DNA from: a virus | Taxonomy: Duplodnaviria; Heunggongvirae; Uroviricota; Caudoviricetes | Virus record (IMG/VR): IMGVR_UViG_2531839579_000019 | Length of the DNA stretch: 10,845 nt | Reading direction: 5' to 3' (one strand) | Part shown: positions 2,831-10,845 of the stretch, piece by piece | How the letters are laid out: each line of letters begins with the position of its first letter | Position numbering within the stretch: the stretch's first letter is position 1 | Made by a program: the position numbers and the translations under genes | Notes under the pieces: model-generated | What the model saw: only the letters and a program-made list of their open reading frames with translations | Told to the model about the DNA's origin: nothing | Database searches by the model: none

Positions 2831-3097
2831 ATGCAAGCTGTTTTTTCTTCCCCGTCTCCCGCCCCTGTGACGCCACTGATGCCGCTGCCGGACATCACGC
2901 AGGAGCGTTTTTTACGTCTGCCGGAAGTGATGCACCTGTGCGGCCTGTCACGCTCGACCATCTACGAACTCATCCGTAAGGGGGAATTTCCGCCGCAGGT
3001 GAGTCTTGGCGGTAAAAATGTGGCCTGGCTGCACTCTGAAGTCACCGCATGGATGGCCGGACGCATTGCCGGACGCAAACGGGGGTACGACGCATGA
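2831..3097 (+). CDS. vis: Vis/orf88, AlpA-family helix-turn-helix regulator (88 aa)
   Basis: Intact 88-aa ORF with GAGG 6 nt upstream. Contains the AlpA-type HTH signature RLPEV...[14 protein letters not shown]. It is the first gene of the rightward operon, as for P4 orf88. Confidence 0.75.
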
Positions 3098-4880: not shown

Positions 4881-7210
4881 ATGAAAATGAACGTAACCGC
4901 CACCGTCAGCCATGCGCTCGGCCACTGGCCGCGTATTCTCCCGGCGCTGGGGATTCAGGTGCTGAAAAACCGTCATCAGCCCTGTCCGGTCTGTGGCGGG
5001 AGTGACCGCTTCCGTTTTGATGACAGGGAGGGGCGCGGCACCTGGTACTGCAATCAGTGTGGTGCCGGTGACGGCCTGAAACTGGTTGAAAAGGTGTTTG
5101 GTGTTTCCCCGTCCGACGCGGCCACAAAGGTGGCTGCCGTGACCGGCAGCCTGCCCCCGACTGACCCGGCAGTGACGGCTGCCGCCGGTGCTGAAACAGA
5201 CGCTGCCCGGAAGAACGCCGCCGCACTGGCACAAACCCTGATGGCGAAAACCCGTCCCGGAACCGGTAACGCCTACCTGACCCGCAAGGGCTTTCCCGGC
5301 CGGGAATGCCGGATGCTGACCGGCACACACAGAGCCGGTGGCGTGAGCTGGCGCCCGGTGACCTTGTGGTGCCACTGTATGACGACAGCGGCGAACTGGT
5401 TAACCTTCAGTTAATCAGTGCTGACGGCCGTAAGCGCACCCTGAAAGGCGGACAGGTCAGGGGCACCTGTCACACCCTTGAAGGACAGAATCAGGCCGGA
5501 AAACGTCTGTGGATAGCGGAGGGATACGCGACCGCACTTACCGTCATCACCTGACCGGTGAAACGGTGATGGTGGCGCTTTCTTCCGTGAACCTCCTTTC
5601 TCTGGCCAGCCTTGCCCGGCAGAAGCATCCGGCCTGTCAGATTGTCCTTGCCGCAGACCGTGACCTCAGCGGTGACGGCCAGAAAAAAGCCGCCGCAGCC
5701 GCAGATGCGTGTGAGGGCGTTGTTGCCCTGCCGCCGGTCTTCGGTGACTGGAATGATGCCTTCACGCAGTACGGCGGGGAGGCCACCCGTAAGGCCATTT
5801 ACGATGCCATCCGGCCACCGGCTGAAAGCCCGTTCGACACCATGAGCGAAGCAGAGTTTTCCGCCATGAGTACCAGCGAAAAGGCCATGCGTATCTATGA
5901 GCATTACGGCGAGGCGCTCGCGGTCGATGCCAACGGCCAGCTTCTGTCCCGTTATGAAAATGGTGTCTGGAAGGTGCTGCCGCCACAGGACTTTGCCCGG
6001 GATGTGGCCGGGCTGTTTCAGCGTCTGCGCGCGCCGTTCTCCTCCGGGAAGGTGGCCTCCGTGGTGGACACCCTGAAGCTGATTATTCCGCAGCAGGAAG
6101 CCCCCTCCCGCCGCCTGATTGGCTTTCGTAACGGCGTGCTCGACACGCAGAACGGCACGTTCCACCCGCACAGTCCGTCACACTGGATGCGCACCCTGTG
6201 CGATGTGGATTTCACCCCGCCGGTGGACGGTGAAACGCTGGAACCCACGCCCCCGCGTTCTGGGCTGGCTTGACCGTGCCGCCGGTGGCCGTGCGGAAAA
6301 ACGCGACGTGATTCTGGCCGCACTGTTTATGGTGCTGGCAAACCGCTACGACTGGCAGCTCTTTCTGGAGGTGACCGGTCCCGGCGGCAGCGGCAAAAGT
6401 ATCATGGCCGAAATAGCCACCCTGCTGGCCGGGGAGGATAACGCCACGTCGGCCACCATTGAGACGCTGGAATCCCCGCGTGAACGTGCCGCGTTAACTG
6501 GCTTCTCACTGATACGCCTGCCGGACCAGGAAAAATGGAGCGGCGACGGTGCCGGACTCAAGGCCATCACCGGCGGCGATGCGGTGTCCGTGGACCCGAA
6601 ATACCGGGATGCGTACTCCACGCATATCCCGGCGGTGATTCTGGCCGTGAACAATAACCCGATGCGCTTCACCGACCGCAGCGGCGGCGTGTCACGCCGG
6701 CGGGTGATTATTCACTTCCCGGAACAGATAGCCCCGCAGGAGCGCGACCCGCAGCTTAAGGACAAAATCACCCGCGAGCTGGCGGTCATCGTGCGTCACC
6801 TGATGCAGAAGTTCAGCGACCCGATGCTCGCCCGGTCACTGCTTCAGTCCCAGCAGAACTCAGACGAGGCGCTGAACATCAAACGGGATGCCGACCCGAC
6901 GTTTGATTTTATCGGCTATCTGGAAACCCTGCCGCAGACCAGCGGCATGTATATGGGGAACGCCAGTATCATCCCGCGTAATTACCGTAAATACCTCTAT
7001 CACGCCTATCTGGCCTACATGGAGGCAAACGGCTACCGGAATGTACTCAGTCTGAAAATGTTCGGGCTGGGGCTGCCGGTGATGCTGAAGGAATACGGAC
7101 TGAATTACGAGAAGCGCCATACCAAACAGGGGATACAGACCAACCTGACGCTGAAAGAGGAAAGCTACGGCGACTGGCTGCCAAAATGTGACGACCCTGC
7201 AACAGCCTGA
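4881..7210 (+). pseudogene. alpha: Alpha-type primase/helicase, split into four frame segments by three frameshifts
   Basis: AAGGAGA 8 nt upstream of ATG 4881. Zinc-binding primase N-terminus (CPVCGG...RF...WYCNQCG), a Toprim-like segment (5306-5554), and a helicase part with Walker A GPGGSGKS (6119-7210). Frame changes fall within 5306-5414, 5509-5554 and 6119-6273. Total span 2330 nt, close to the 777-codon P4 alpha. Confidence 0.8.
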
Positions 7211-7251: not shown

Positions 7252-7267
7252 ATCCCTGAATCCCCCG

Positions 7268-7566
7268 AAGGTGAACAATCCACTGTTCACCCTTCACCGT
7301 ATATTCACCCGTTATCACACTGAAATTAAAAGAGAAAAACGAAAGGTGAACAGTGTGAACAATCAAATCAAAAAAAACTTTTTTCTTCCTGAGTGATTTC
7401 AGTGCGGAGGATTAATCACCGGTATGAGTCACACCGGCAGAATGCCGGAGGTGAAGAATCGAATGTTCACCCTTCACCCATTATTCACCACCTATCACTC
7501 TGAAATAAAAGGAGAAAACAGAAAGGTGAACAGTGTGAACAGTTCTTTCGAAAAAAAATTTTTTAT
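7268..7566. repeat. crr-like cis replication region: two ~117-bp direct repeats carrying the iterons
   Basis: Unit 1 (about 7268-7384) and unit 2 (about 7448-7566) are imperfect direct repeats with a 180-bp period. Each carries several TGTTCACC/GGTGAACA motifs and ends in an A-run/T-run. Matches the two-repeat crr downstream of alpha in P4. Confidence 0.7.
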
Positions 7567-7757
7567 GTGGATAAAAGATGCACTGGTTTGGATCCGAGCT
7601 ACGGATCCAAACTTACTGATTAAAAATGATTTAACTTTCCGATTTATTGATGGGCTGAAAATAGATTGGTCAGAAAAACAGTGGGGGCACAAAAGGGGGC
7701 ATATTTCATTGTTGTGTTTTATTATTTGTTTTTTATCATTAACTTATTTTGATGTTT

Positions 7758-7776
7758 GAGTCCGGCCTTCGCACCA
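7758..7776 (+). other. attP: att core resembling the 3' end of tRNA-Leu (leuX), with no tRNA body upstream
   Basis: gagtccggccttcgcacca matches the leuX 3' end GAGTCCGGCCTTCGGCACCA as I recall it, except for one missing G. The sequence upstream (7700-7757) is AT-rich and not tRNA-like. Lies 190 bp upstream of int. Confidence 0.55.
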
Positions 7777-7792
7777 TATAAAGTTTTTTTCA

Positions 7793-7876
7793 AGTCTACT
7801 CACGTCTACTTTAGTCCATAAAAACAGTAAATTAAGCAGGTTTTTTGCTTTTCTTAGTCTGTCCACGTCTACTTAC
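7793..7876. promoter_or_regulatory. Direct repeats between att core and int (candidate integrase arm-type sites / int promoter region)
   Basis: agtctactcacgtctacttt (7793-7812) and agtctgtccacgtctactta (7857-7876) match at 17 of 20 positions, 64 bp apart. Function is inferred from position only. Confidence 0.35.
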
Positions 7877-7965
7877 TTCTATCCACATATACCAACGAAT
7901 GATGGTATAACTGGTGGTATCTTCGGTTCGATTGATTTTGATACCAACAGCGGAGGTATCAACTG

Positions 7966-9216
7966 ATGGCACTTACTGATATCAAAGTTAGGACTACCAA
8001 GCCCTCCGACAAACCTTTCAAACTTACAGATGGGCAGGGTATGCACCTGCTGATCAACCCCAATGGTTCAAAATACTGGCGACTCCAATACCGTTTCGAT
8101 GGCAAACAGAAAGTTTTAGCATTGGGAGTTTATCCAATAGTCTCTCTTGGTGAAGCTCGCAGGAAACGAGATGAGGCCAAAAAGTTGGTATCTGATGGTA
8201 TCGATCCTTCCGAGAAGAAAAAAGCAGACAAGATCGAGCAGAGCGAAGCTCTGACATTCGAGGCTGTCGCAAGGGACTGGCATACTGCCTGTAAAAGGAA
8301 ATGGTCTGATTCCCACAGCGAGAGAGTTCTAAAAAGCATGGAAGATGGTCTCTTTACTGCTATTGGTAAAAGAAAAATATCCGAACTTAATACCAGAGAT
8401 CTTCTTGCCCCTATCAAGGCTGTTGAAGCTTCCGGGCGATTGGAAGTTGCTTCCCGATTACAGCAAAGAACAACGGCGGTAATGAGATATGCTGTCCAGA
8501 ACGGGCTGATAGATTACAACCCTGCTCAGGAGATGGCAGGAGCTATTGCGGTAGCTAAAAGAGTCCACAGGCCAGCTTTGCCATTCGAACGATTCTCAGA
8601 ACTTTTAGAACGAATTGATAGTTTCAAGGGTAGAAAACTCACGAAGTTAGCCGTGAAACTCACATTGCTCATTTTCATTCGTTCAAGTGAACTTAGGTTT
8701 GCTCGTTGGTCAGAGATAGATTTCGACAATGCCATGTGGACTATCCCTGGGGAACGTGAGCCATTGCCAGGGGTCAAACATTCTCATCGAGGCTCAAAAA
8801 TGAAGACCCCACACCTCGTGCCGTTAAGTCGCCAGGCTATAGAACTCCTCAAAGCTATCAAAGAAATCAGCGGTGAATGTGAACTTGTGTTCATTGGTGA
8901 TCATGATTTTAGAAAGCCTATGAGTGAAAACACGGTAAACAAGGCTTTAAGGTCTATGGGCTACGACACTACGGTTGAAGTATGTGGACATGGTTTTCGT
9001 GCGATGGCATGTAGTGCGTTGATCGAATCGGGAAAATGGTCAAGGGATGCTGTTGAACGGCAGATGAGCCACCAAGAGCGAAACTCCGTTCGTGCTGCCT
9101 ACATTCATAAAGCAGAACACCTTGATGAAAGAAGGCTTATGTTGCAGTGGTGGGCTGATTACCTTAATGCCTTGAAAGATAGGTTTATCAGTCCCTTTGA
9201 TTTTACAACAAAGTAG
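7966..9216 (+). CDS. int: P4-type tyrosine integrase (416 aa)
   Basis: GGAGG 9 nt upstream of ATG 7966. P4-family N-terminus (MALTDIKVRTTKP...YWRLQYRF...), catalytic-region H-x-x-R (HGFRAMA) and a tyrosine in RAAYIHKAEHLDERR. Intact. GC is visibly lower than the psu-alpha core. Confidence 0.9.
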   Translation: MALTDIKVRTTKPSDKPFKLTDGQGMHLLINPNGSKYWRLQYRFDGKQKVLALGVYPIVSLGEARRKRDEAKKLVSDGIDPSEKKKADKIEQSEALTFEAVARDWHTACKRKWSDSHSERVLKSMEDGLFTAIGKRKISELNTRDLLAPIKAVEASGRLEVASRLQQRTTAVMRYAVQNGLIDYNPAQEMAGAIAVAKRVHRPALPFERFSELLERIDSFKGRKLTKLAVKLTLLIFIRSSELRFARWSEIDFDNAMWTIPGEREPLPGVKHSHRGSKMKTPHLVPLSRQAIELLKAIKEISGECELVFIGDHDFRKPMSENTVNKALRSMGYDTTVEVCGHGFRAMACSALIESGKWSRDAVERQMSHQERNSVRAAYIHKAEHLDERRLMLQWWADYLNALKDRFISPFDFTTK

Positions 9217-9303
9217 CTTGATCAACGATTAACTATCCACTGGCATAGCCGTGTGATATGATTACAATGGCTATATTTTTAATTTAAATTTAATAGGTAA
9301 AAA

Positions 9304-10443
9304 ATGTCCACAATTAACCCCGCAATTTTTTCTTTTTTCTCTGGTTCAGGATTTCTTGATCTTGGATTTGAAAAAAATGGTTATGAAGTGGTTTTCGTGA
9401 ATGAATACCATGCTCCGTTTATGGATGCATATAAACATTCGAGGAAAAAATTAAATATAGCACCACCTCGTTTTGGGTATGCAGAGTGCAGTATTGAAGA
9501 TGTAGAACATGAAAAAATTAAGTCTTCTATGCTTCAACTTAAAAATGAGGGGCGATTGACTGGATTTATTGGTGGTCCACCATGCCCGGATTTCTCTGTA
9601 GCGGGTAAAAATAAAGGTCGAGATGGTGAAAACGGTCGGCTTTCACAAAGCTATATTGATATCATTCTTGAAATGAAACCAGATTTCTTTCTTTTTGAGA
9701 ATGTTAAAGGTCTATACCGTACCAGTAAACATAGGGAATTTTTTGACCATTTAAAAACTCAATTAGAATCGGTTGGTTATTGTTTGCATGAAAAACTAAT
9801 AAATTCTATTGAATATGGTGCTCCTCAAGATAGGCAACGAATCATATTGATTGGTTTCCTTGATGAAAAATATGCAAGCCAATTCAATTGGGGGCAAAGA
9901 GTCTACCCTGAAAGAACTGCATTTGAATATAAATGGCCGACGACAAACCAATTTTCAGAAAACACTTCTGTTATAAAACCAAAGGGTATCCCAGAAGAGT
10001 TAACAGTAGAGCATTGGTTCAAGAAAAACCAGGTTGATAATCATCCAAATGCAAAGCATGTATTCGCGGCAAGAGCAGGGCTTGCGAGGTTTTTGACTGT
10101 CGAAGAAGGGGATGATAGTAAAAAATCCTATAAAAGGTTGCATAGATGGAGATTTTCACCAACTGCTGCTTACGGTAATAATGAGGTACATTTACATCCT
10201 TATAAACCAAGAAGAATTACTGTTGCCGAAGCATTAGCAATTCAGTCTTTACCAAAAGAATTTGAATTACCTGCTTATATGACTCTGTCTAATATGTTTA
10301 AAACTGTCGGTAACGGTGTACCCTACTTAGCAGCGGCCGGTATTGCCAAATCTATTATAGAGCATTTAGGAATCGAATATGAGAGTAACTGCGGCGAACT
10401 TAGCACAGGCGATTGCCAATCTACCAAGAAACACGCAGTTTAA
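9304..10443 (+). CDS. DNA (cytosine-5)-methyltransferase (379 aa), intact
   Basis: Ordered C5-methyltransferase motifs: motif I-like FSGSGF, motif IV GGPPCPDFSVAG, motif VI FENVKGL, motif VIII QDRQR, motif X TVGNGVP. AT-rich; first gene after int. Confidence 0.85.
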   Translation: MSTINPAIFSFFSGSGFLDLGFEKNGYEVVFVNEYHAPFMDAYKHSRKKLNIAPPRFGYAECSIEDVEHEKIKSSMLQLKNEGRLTGFIGGPPCPDFSVAGKNKGRDGENGRLSQSYIDIILEMKPDFFLFENVKGLYRTSKHREFFDHLKTQLESVGYCLHEKLINSIEYGAPQDRQRIILIGFLDEKYASQFNWGQRVYPERTAFEYKWPTTNQFSENTSVIKPKGIPEELTVEHWFKKNQVDNHPNAKHVFAARAGLARFLTVEEGDDSKKSYKRLHRWRFSPTAAYGNNEVHLHPYKPRRITVAEALAIQSLPKEFELPAYMTLSNMFKTVGNGVPYLAAAGIAKSIIEHLGIEYESNCGELSTGDCQSTKKHAV

Positions 10444-10453
10444 TTATTTAAAT

Positions 10454-10845
10454 GTGCGAAATTCGGGAAGAATCATTGTAACGAATGTTCAACTTCCCGA
10501 AGGCCCAATAGAATTCAAAAGATTCGATCCAAAAAAGGGTGAGACACTGCATAGTTCTAAATCGGAAAGCATCTCCACACAAATGATGTGGAGATTGGCT
10601 AATGCTTTACAGGAAGATGTCCCTGTCAATTTGGATCGTATTTTTGGTGCAAGCTATAATACACGTGCTGTTCTCGAAAGCCTTTTGGCCCATACTCCTG
10701 AGTTTTATTGGTGTAAGCTTGATCGCCTTGAGGTAATGAACACTCAGAAAAATATTAAAAAAGGTCACAAGCACCTTATTTATAGACCAAATGACCCACA
10801 TGAAAATGGTGTAGCAATAGAACATACTACTAATGTTATAATTTC
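10454..10845 (+). CDS. Unknown ORF immediately downstream of the methyltransferase (3'-truncated by the window edge); possible functional partner
   Basis: Frame open from 10442 to the window end, 130 codons visible. Candidate starts are GTG 10454 (10 nt after the methyltransferase stop) or ATG 10583; neither has a clear Shine-Dalgarno sequence. Same strand and composition as the methyltransferase. No diagnostic motif in the visible part. Confidence 0.45.
   Translation, partial: MRNSGRIIVTNVQLPEGPIEFKRFDPKKGETLHSSKSESISTQMMWRLANALQEDVPVNLDRIFGASYNTRAVLESLLAHTPEFYWCKLDRLEVMNTQKNIKKGHKHLIYRPNDPHENGVAIEHTTNVII

Follow-up and report, generated by a model that had tools for sequence, protein, structure and literature searches.

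Methyltransferase gene in the window

The 10,845-nucleotide (nt) stretch of DNA analyzed here (the window; IMG/VR virus record IMGVR_UViG_2531839579_000019) contains at 9304..10443, on the plus strand, a single ATG-initiated open reading frame (ORF), present in the ORF list of the window, for a cytosine-5 DNA methyltransferase of 379 amino acids (aa). Results of our analysis, which combined PF00145, TIGR00675 and PADLOC profiles with a Swiss-Prot comparison, indicate with a probability of about 0.88 that this ORF encodes the modification subunit (M) of an NmeDI-like Type II restriction-modification (R-M) operon. The best genomic match of the window is Escherichia coli strain 504237 (NZ_CP025862), with 99.9% identity over 7300-10845 and 100% over 9304-10845, and the methylase corresponds to WP_001399625.1 in the RefSeq annotation of this strain. 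The match to PF00145 extends over profile positions 3-323 of 324 (E 5.1e-54, 184 bits, cut-off 22) and is accompanied by a match to TIGR00675 (E 6.3e-48, 164 bits, cut-off 100.65); these full-profile matches indicate that the ORF is a real gene. The PADLOC Type II methyltransferase model MTase_II (PDLC03355) matches the protein with E 1e-163.

The conserved motifs of the protein were located by a script, all on the plus strand. Motif I, the S-adenosylmethionine (AdoMet) loop, reads FSGSGF (aa 12-17, nt 9337..9354), and motif IV, the catalytic loop, reads PPCPDFS (aa 92-98, nt 9577..9597), with the catalytic Cys94 followed by Pro95 at the position where Gln is usual. They are followed by motif VI, ENV (aa 132-134, nt 9697..9705), motif VIII, QDRQR (aa 175-179, nt 9826..9840), motif IX, RRITVAE (aa 303-309, nt 10210..10230), and motif X, GNGV (aa 336-339, nt 10309..10320). 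The catalytic Pro-Cys (aa 93-94), the Glu of ENV, the Arg residues of QxRxR and the GN of motif X are all present in the canonical order. The first-pass annotation of this DNA, which had reported unusual residues in motifs IV and I next to canonical ENV, Q-x-R-x-R and GNGV motifs, was correct in both respects. When aligned residue by residue to M.HaeIII (PDB 1dct), the methylase places GGPPCPDFS over GGPPCQSWS and FSGSGFLDLGF over FSGAGGLDLGF, which shows that homologous positions are being compared and that both changes, of Gln to Pro after the catalytic Cys and of Gly to the Phe that closes motif I, are genuine substitutions.

The AlphaFold2 model of the methylase has a predicted local distance difference test score of 83 and a predicted template modelling score of 0.85; confidence is low only at residues 97-108, which form the mobile catalytic loop, and in the C-terminal tail. 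The best PDB matches of this model in a Foldseek search, M.HaeIII and M.HhaI (probability 1.00), have the two-domain methyltransferase fold. M.HaeIII (PDB 1dct/3ubt) is the closest solved structure; it shares the fold and the motif order with the methylase, and its N-terminal catalytic half aligns at E 7e-32. It differs, however, in having PCQ and GxGG, in a target-recognition region that does not align, and in its specificity, GGCC.

Partner endonuclease gene

The methylase gene is followed, in the same orientation, by the gene of an NmeDI-type restriction endonuclease (R), of which the first 155 codons lie in the window (10379..10845, plus strand) and the rest runs off its end, as read from the sequence and from the corresponding coding sequence (CDS) in NZ_CP025862. 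It begins with the ATG at 10379, downstream of AGGA at 10368-10371 and 65 nt inside the 3' end of the methylase gene, whose stop codon ends at 10443. In the identical stretch of NZ_CP025862 the complete CDS encodes 358 aa (L001:18080-19156). The PADLOC model REase_II (PDLC03534) matches this protein at positions 5-350 of 351 (E 8.7e-124), and homologs of the endonuclease carry the precomputed Pfam label PF27126, NmeDI_C. No match was found in the local copies of Pfam and NCBIfam or among PDB sequences, and the identity of the endonuclease is thus based on PADLOC, on the label NmeDI_C and on the description of NmeDI in PMC2095814. The suggestion that the methylase may be a part of a defence system is in this way supported by an overlapping restriction endonuclease gene.

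The alignment of endonuclease relatives revealed conserved D250, E265 and E267. These residues probably lie in the C-terminal half and may form a predicted PD-(D/E)XK-type site, and a FokI-like cleavage module would fit the cutting away from the recognition site. In one RefSeq E. coli record the product of the neighbor gene already bears the name 'type II restriction enzyme NmeDI-related protein'; the RefSeq names of the pair are, for most E. coli genomes, 'DNA cytosine methyltransferase' and 'hypothetical protein'.

Similarity to the NmeDI system

The Swiss-Prot entry Q9RLM4, 'Type II methyltransferase M.NmeDI' of Neisseria meningitidis, reads FSFFSGAGFLDLGF (motif I FSGAGF) and GGPPCPDFS, and so shares FSG[AS]GF and the complete motif IV with the methylase of the window. 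The two proteins are 61% identical over 360 residues with 11 gap positions (E 1e-162), and their alignment takes in the variable region between motifs VIII and IX, where many blocks are identical and large gaps are absent. Q9RLM4 was found in the 90% cluster of the methylase encoded at a Neisseria viridiae locus (L074), in which the gene order is pheS, vsr, M, R for a 351-aa protein, and pheT, with a nine-codon overlap of M and R. Over all of its 358 aa, the E. coli endonuclease shares 51% identity with the Neisseria 351-aa NmeDI-type enzyme.

R.NmeDI has been described as a 351-aa enzyme that acts as a tetramer, requires two sites and cuts (12/7)RCCGGY(7/12) with the excision of 25 bp (PMC2095814). 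The cognate M.NmeDI is reported to recognize and modify RCCGGB (PMC2095814). R.NmeDI was cloned in E. coli with co-expression of the M.NmeDI gene, and the cloned M and R pair restricted lambda-vir 1000-fold in that host (PMC2095814). The NmeDI genes are co-oriented, and the first nine codons of R overlap the 3' end of M (PMC2095814). The E. coli locus shows the same arrangement, M followed by co-oriented R with the start of R inside the 3' end of M, although the overlap is of 65 nt rather than nine codons. The loci differ in two further respects: vsr adjoins the Neisseria pair and is absent next to the E. coli pair, and the latter resides on an integrative island at leuX, whereas the N. viridiae pair is located between pheS and pheT.

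Motif substitutions as a subfamily signature

In a search of a protein collection clustered at 90% identity, the 120 best clusters were kept (57-100% identity to the methylase). PCPDFS is present in all 120, and in 108 of them motif I was matched by a pattern, F[SA]G[ASCVG]G[FL]. An exhaustive search of representatives at 50% identity gave 25,676 matches at E <= 0.001; among the best 150 of these, in which motif IV was read, PCP occurs in 76 and PCQ in 43, with a few instances of PCT, PCV, PCI and PCA. Within the same methylase clade the residue that follows the catalytic Cys is sometimes V, T, I or Q (PCVDFS, PCTDFS, PCIDFS, PCQDFS), and judged from these sequences the position appears to be evolutionarily permissive in the wider clade. 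In a neighbor-joining tree of full-length representatives, the methylase and M.NmeDI are placed inside a large PCPDFS set; in its sister groups the motif is PCQD[FY]S, and in nearly all sequences the residue after GxG is F, L, I or M, and not G.

The conservation of individual residues was assessed in an alignment of 53 sequences that are 57-92% identical to the methylase. P92, P93, C94, P95, D96, F97 and S98 are invariant in it, as are E132, N133 and V134 of motif VI, Q175, R177 and R179 of motif VIII, R303, R304 and E309 of motif IX and G336, N337, G338 and V339 of motif X, and F17 is at least 90% conserved. Read from this alignment, the invariance of P95 together with that of the catalytic residues is a mark of purifying selection on the PCP variant, and the Pro that follows the catalytic Cys, like the Phe that ends the glycine loop, is a signature residue fixed in a subfamily; neither is a lesion or a sign of decay. 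The proposal that the motifs mark a divergent subfamily therefore stands, with PCPDFS and F-x-G-x-G-[FL] in every close relative and with the PCP variant common to a clade (120/120 clusters and all 74 genomic loci at which it could be read, see below). Its novelty does not: the first-pass annotation had allowed that PCP being common among active enzymes would remove it, and M.NmeDI is reported to be an active enzyme of this kind (PMC2095814). The subfamily is already represented by this characterized enzyme with the same residues, and the E. coli gene is an uncharacterized member of it. A discussion of the PCP variant was not located in a search of full-text literature. PCP-D-F-S combined with GxG-F can be used as a quick signature of the subfamily. 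Methylases 48-56% identical to that of the window are also encoded by Vibrio and Akkermansia phages (PQ189377, OR762784, ON453894); the subfamily is thus phage-borne as well, and possibly plays an anti-restriction role there.

A scan of species-representative genomes with the alignment of the endonuclease identified 257 relatives, and 80 loci were fetched. At 74 of these 80 loci, each from a different species, a PCPDFS methylase is encoded immediately upstream of the endonuclease homolog; motif IV was unreadable at the remaining six, at most of them because the contig is cut. That the endonuclease has been retained beside the methylase in many phyla implies a host-protecting function of PCP methylases. 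The NmeDI-type pair is very widespread, the 257 species representatives including Enterobacteria, Neisseria, Roseobacter, Bacteroidota, Bacillota, Cyanobacteria, Elusimicrobia and candidate phyla. The vsr gene adjoins the pair at only 18 of the 80 loci read. Among complete E. coli genomes the pair is present in 46, of which 13 carry the allele described here and 33 an allele about 70% identical to it at the nucleotide level.

Predicted activity and specificity

In cytosine-5 methyltransferases the Cys of motif IV attacks C6 of the base, the Glu of ENV protonates N3, the arginines of motif VIII position the base, and the Asn of ENV holds the backbone carbonyl of the Pro that precedes the Cys (PMC4802922). 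The residue that follows the Cys has no assigned catalytic role, and the motif IV of Dnmt3a reads PCN (PMC4802922). As all residues with assigned roles are present in the methylase of the window, ordinary formation of 5-methylcytosine is to be expected from its sequence. Cys94 would attack C6 of a flipped-out cytosine, Glu132 together with Arg177 and Arg179 would activate and position the base, and AdoMet, held by motifs I-III and X, would donate the methyl group. The target is probably RCCGGB/RCCGGY, as predicted from the similarity to NmeDI. Methylation would shield the host DNA from the co-transcribed and translationally overlapping endonuclease, which by homology to R.NmeDI may be expected to recognize RCCGGY, cut it as (12/7)RCCGGY(7/12) and act as a tetramer that needs two sites. 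The appropriate label for the pair is NmeDI-like Type II R-M system, with RCCGGY as the predicted site; beyond correct annotation the importance of this assignment is small.

Several points weigh against the assignment to an NmeDI-like operon. Both the activity and the specificity of the E. coli M and R proteins are predicted from homology, and identities of 61% (M) and 51% (R) make the NmeDI specificity likely and not guaranteed. The specificity of M.NmeDI itself is given as cited in PMC2095814 from its reference 4. The window holds only 155 endonuclease codons, and that the gene is intact is judged from complete genomes that contain the 100% identical stretch. Finally, a tblastn search with the Vsr of the N. 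viridiae locus, which found it at 18 of the 80 loci, did not find it at the E. coli loci L001 and L002, although Vsr is an accessory component of such systems and does not define them.

Of the alternatives, the one that survives best is a variant of the preferred reading, namely, an NmeDI-family R-M system with a recognition sequence other than RCCGGY/RCCGGB. Over the distances that separate the E. coli proteins from the Neisseria prototype, the specificity of Type II systems can change. However, the target-recognition (variable) region aligns to that of M.NmeDI as described above, and database relatives at 61-72% similarity have likewise been predicted to recognize RCCGGY/RCCGGB (PMC2095814), and we consider a different recognition sequence unlikely. 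Somewhat more doubtful still is the possibility of a functionally distinct catalytic loop, with its invariant Pro, Asp-Phe-Ser and glycine-loop Phe, or of a drift of the E. coli pair to a new specificity. A distinct loop might, as one possibility, be associated with altered closure or with lower enzyme-induced cytosine deamination. Neither a distinct loop nor such a drift is indicated by the results obtained here. If true, lower deamination would explain why many members of the subfamily, that of E. coli included, have no linked Vsr repair gene.

The first-pass annotation had also considered an altered activity. On such a reading the enzyme would be inactive, very slow, or specific for a different group or cofactor. 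PCP is a minority variant, and in the PDB chains among the alignments listed the catalytic Cys is always followed by Q or by an engineered residue. A C5-carboxymethyltransferase (8yf3) among the PDB matches illustrates that the fold can use other cofactors, but it is a far weaker match (E 1e-9) than M.HaeIII (E 7e-32). Altered chemistry is very improbable in view of M.NmeDI (Q9RLM4), which has FSGAGF and GGPPCPDFS and is reported to modify RCCGGB and to have been co-expressed with a lethal endonuclease (PMC2095814). The same is indicated by the 74 loci in many phyla at which an intact endonuclease gene is linked to a PCP methylase, so that protective methylation is needed, and by the invariance of P95, which is not decaying. 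Dnmt3a, too, is an active cytosine-5 methyltransferase with a residue other than Gln after the catalytic Cys, and since it works with PCN the third position is not catalytic (PMC4802922), although it is a eukaryotic and distant relative with Asn rather than Pro.

Two elements in tandem at leuX

A P4-like satellite occupies the window from position 1 to about position 7750, and the GC content falls after about 7300, from 0.50-0.64 in the satellite to 0.35-0.46. At the junction, on the plus strand at 7757..7779, lies a degenerate 3' end of tRNA-Leu (leuX), recognized by a 14-nt exact match to the tRNA T-arm; it reads ttgagtccggccttcgcacca and has two differences from the leuX gene. ARAGORN predicted no tRNA in the window, which holds only this degenerate 3' fragment. 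Homology to satellite-free genomes begins at window position 7754, with tRNA-Leu under the match. The remnant is followed by a P4-type tyrosine integrase gene (7966..9216, plus strand; domains Arm-DNA-bind_3, Phage_int_M and Phage_integrase), which in E. coli IAI1 adjoins tRNA-Leu. Reading away from tRNA-Leu, strain 504237 carries an integrase gene, the satellite, the second integrase gene, M and R, and then genes for a DUF6387 protein, AlpA, two further recombinases and relaxase fragments. In IAI1, and likewise in other complete genomes, the integrase-M-R block lies directly at tRNA-Leu without the satellite, and in IAI1 it is accompanied by an intact relaxase gene. The tRNA-Leu remnant, the GC shift, the second integrase and the satellite-free block of IAI1 together identify the methylase as the cargo of a separate island. 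Two integrase-bearing elements are stacked in tandem at leuX, and the R-M island, which is probably mobilizable, is independent of the satellite.

This arrangement bears on the idea, raised in the first-pass annotation, that the methylase protects the satellite, and on the related reading of it as an orphan or anti-restriction enzyme carried by the P4-like element for its own DNA. The methylase gene is only about 2 kb from the satellite primase gene, and the satellite part holds 39 RCCGGY sites vs. about 10 expected from base composition; the satellite part shows no avoidance of RCCGGY. In the 3.1-kb island part there is one such site (10336, inside the methylase gene) vs. 1.3 expected. The methylase, however, lies outside the attachment (att) boundary of the satellite, beyond the tRNA-Leu remnant, in DNA of 35-46% GC vs. 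50-64%, with an integrase of its own, and it has a cognate endonuclease and is thus not an orphan. Moreover, P4-like sequence is present in 2677 of 5426 complete E. coli genomes vs. only 46 for the M-R pair. The protection of the satellite is not borne out by these data, and such a role is even less probable than altered chemistry. With respect to satellite biology, the methylase is not satellite cargo and belongs to the second island at leuX.

The least probable identity, that of DruM, the cytosine methylase of Druantia type II, is suggested by a full-length match to the PADLOC DruM model PDLC00030 (E 5e-142), which places DruM in the same methylase subfamily, but this model is outscored by MTase_II (E 1e-163), the neighbor gene encodes a Type II endonuclease where DruM has the partners DruE, DruF and DruG, none of the downstream proteins tested matches a Druantia model, and the annotation within 15 kb includes no large helicase of the DruE type. 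Druantia type II as a system was rejected at the E. coli loci L001 and L002, from which druE, druF and druG are absent.

Other features of the window and of the island

Domain searches of the satellite part identified psu (410-982), delta (1056-1556), alpA (2831-3097) and pieces of the alpha primase-helicase (4881-7210); a short sid-like ORF is also present. Among complete E. coli genomes the best match of this part is 98.7% identical. Compared with the closest complete genome, the satellite part contains many single-base deletions, nine of them in 1918-2221 and others at 5354, 5544, 6241 and 6263, which split sid and alpha into several ORFs; they could result from assembly error or from pseudogenization.

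Direct repeats of 120 nt, rich in GGTGAACA/TGTTCACC, are located at 7265-7384 and 7445-7564; they are 82% identical and 180 nt apart from start to start. This layout matches that of the crr replication region of phage P4, two alpha-bound 120-bp repeats 60 bp apart. The ORF 7424-7759, a RefSeq 'hypothetical protein', overlaps the repeats and is probably spurious. A scan of 7700-10845 for promoters and terminators gave no more sites than were found in shuffled sequence.

The remainder of the island in strain 504237 (L001:19298-27220) encodes the DUF6387 protein, an AlpA regulator, two adjacent tyrosine recombinases and a relaxase, together with hypothetical proteins of 534, 132 and 142 aa that have no family matches. 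In this strain IS100 and ISCro1 interrupt the relaxase gene, which is intact in IAI1.
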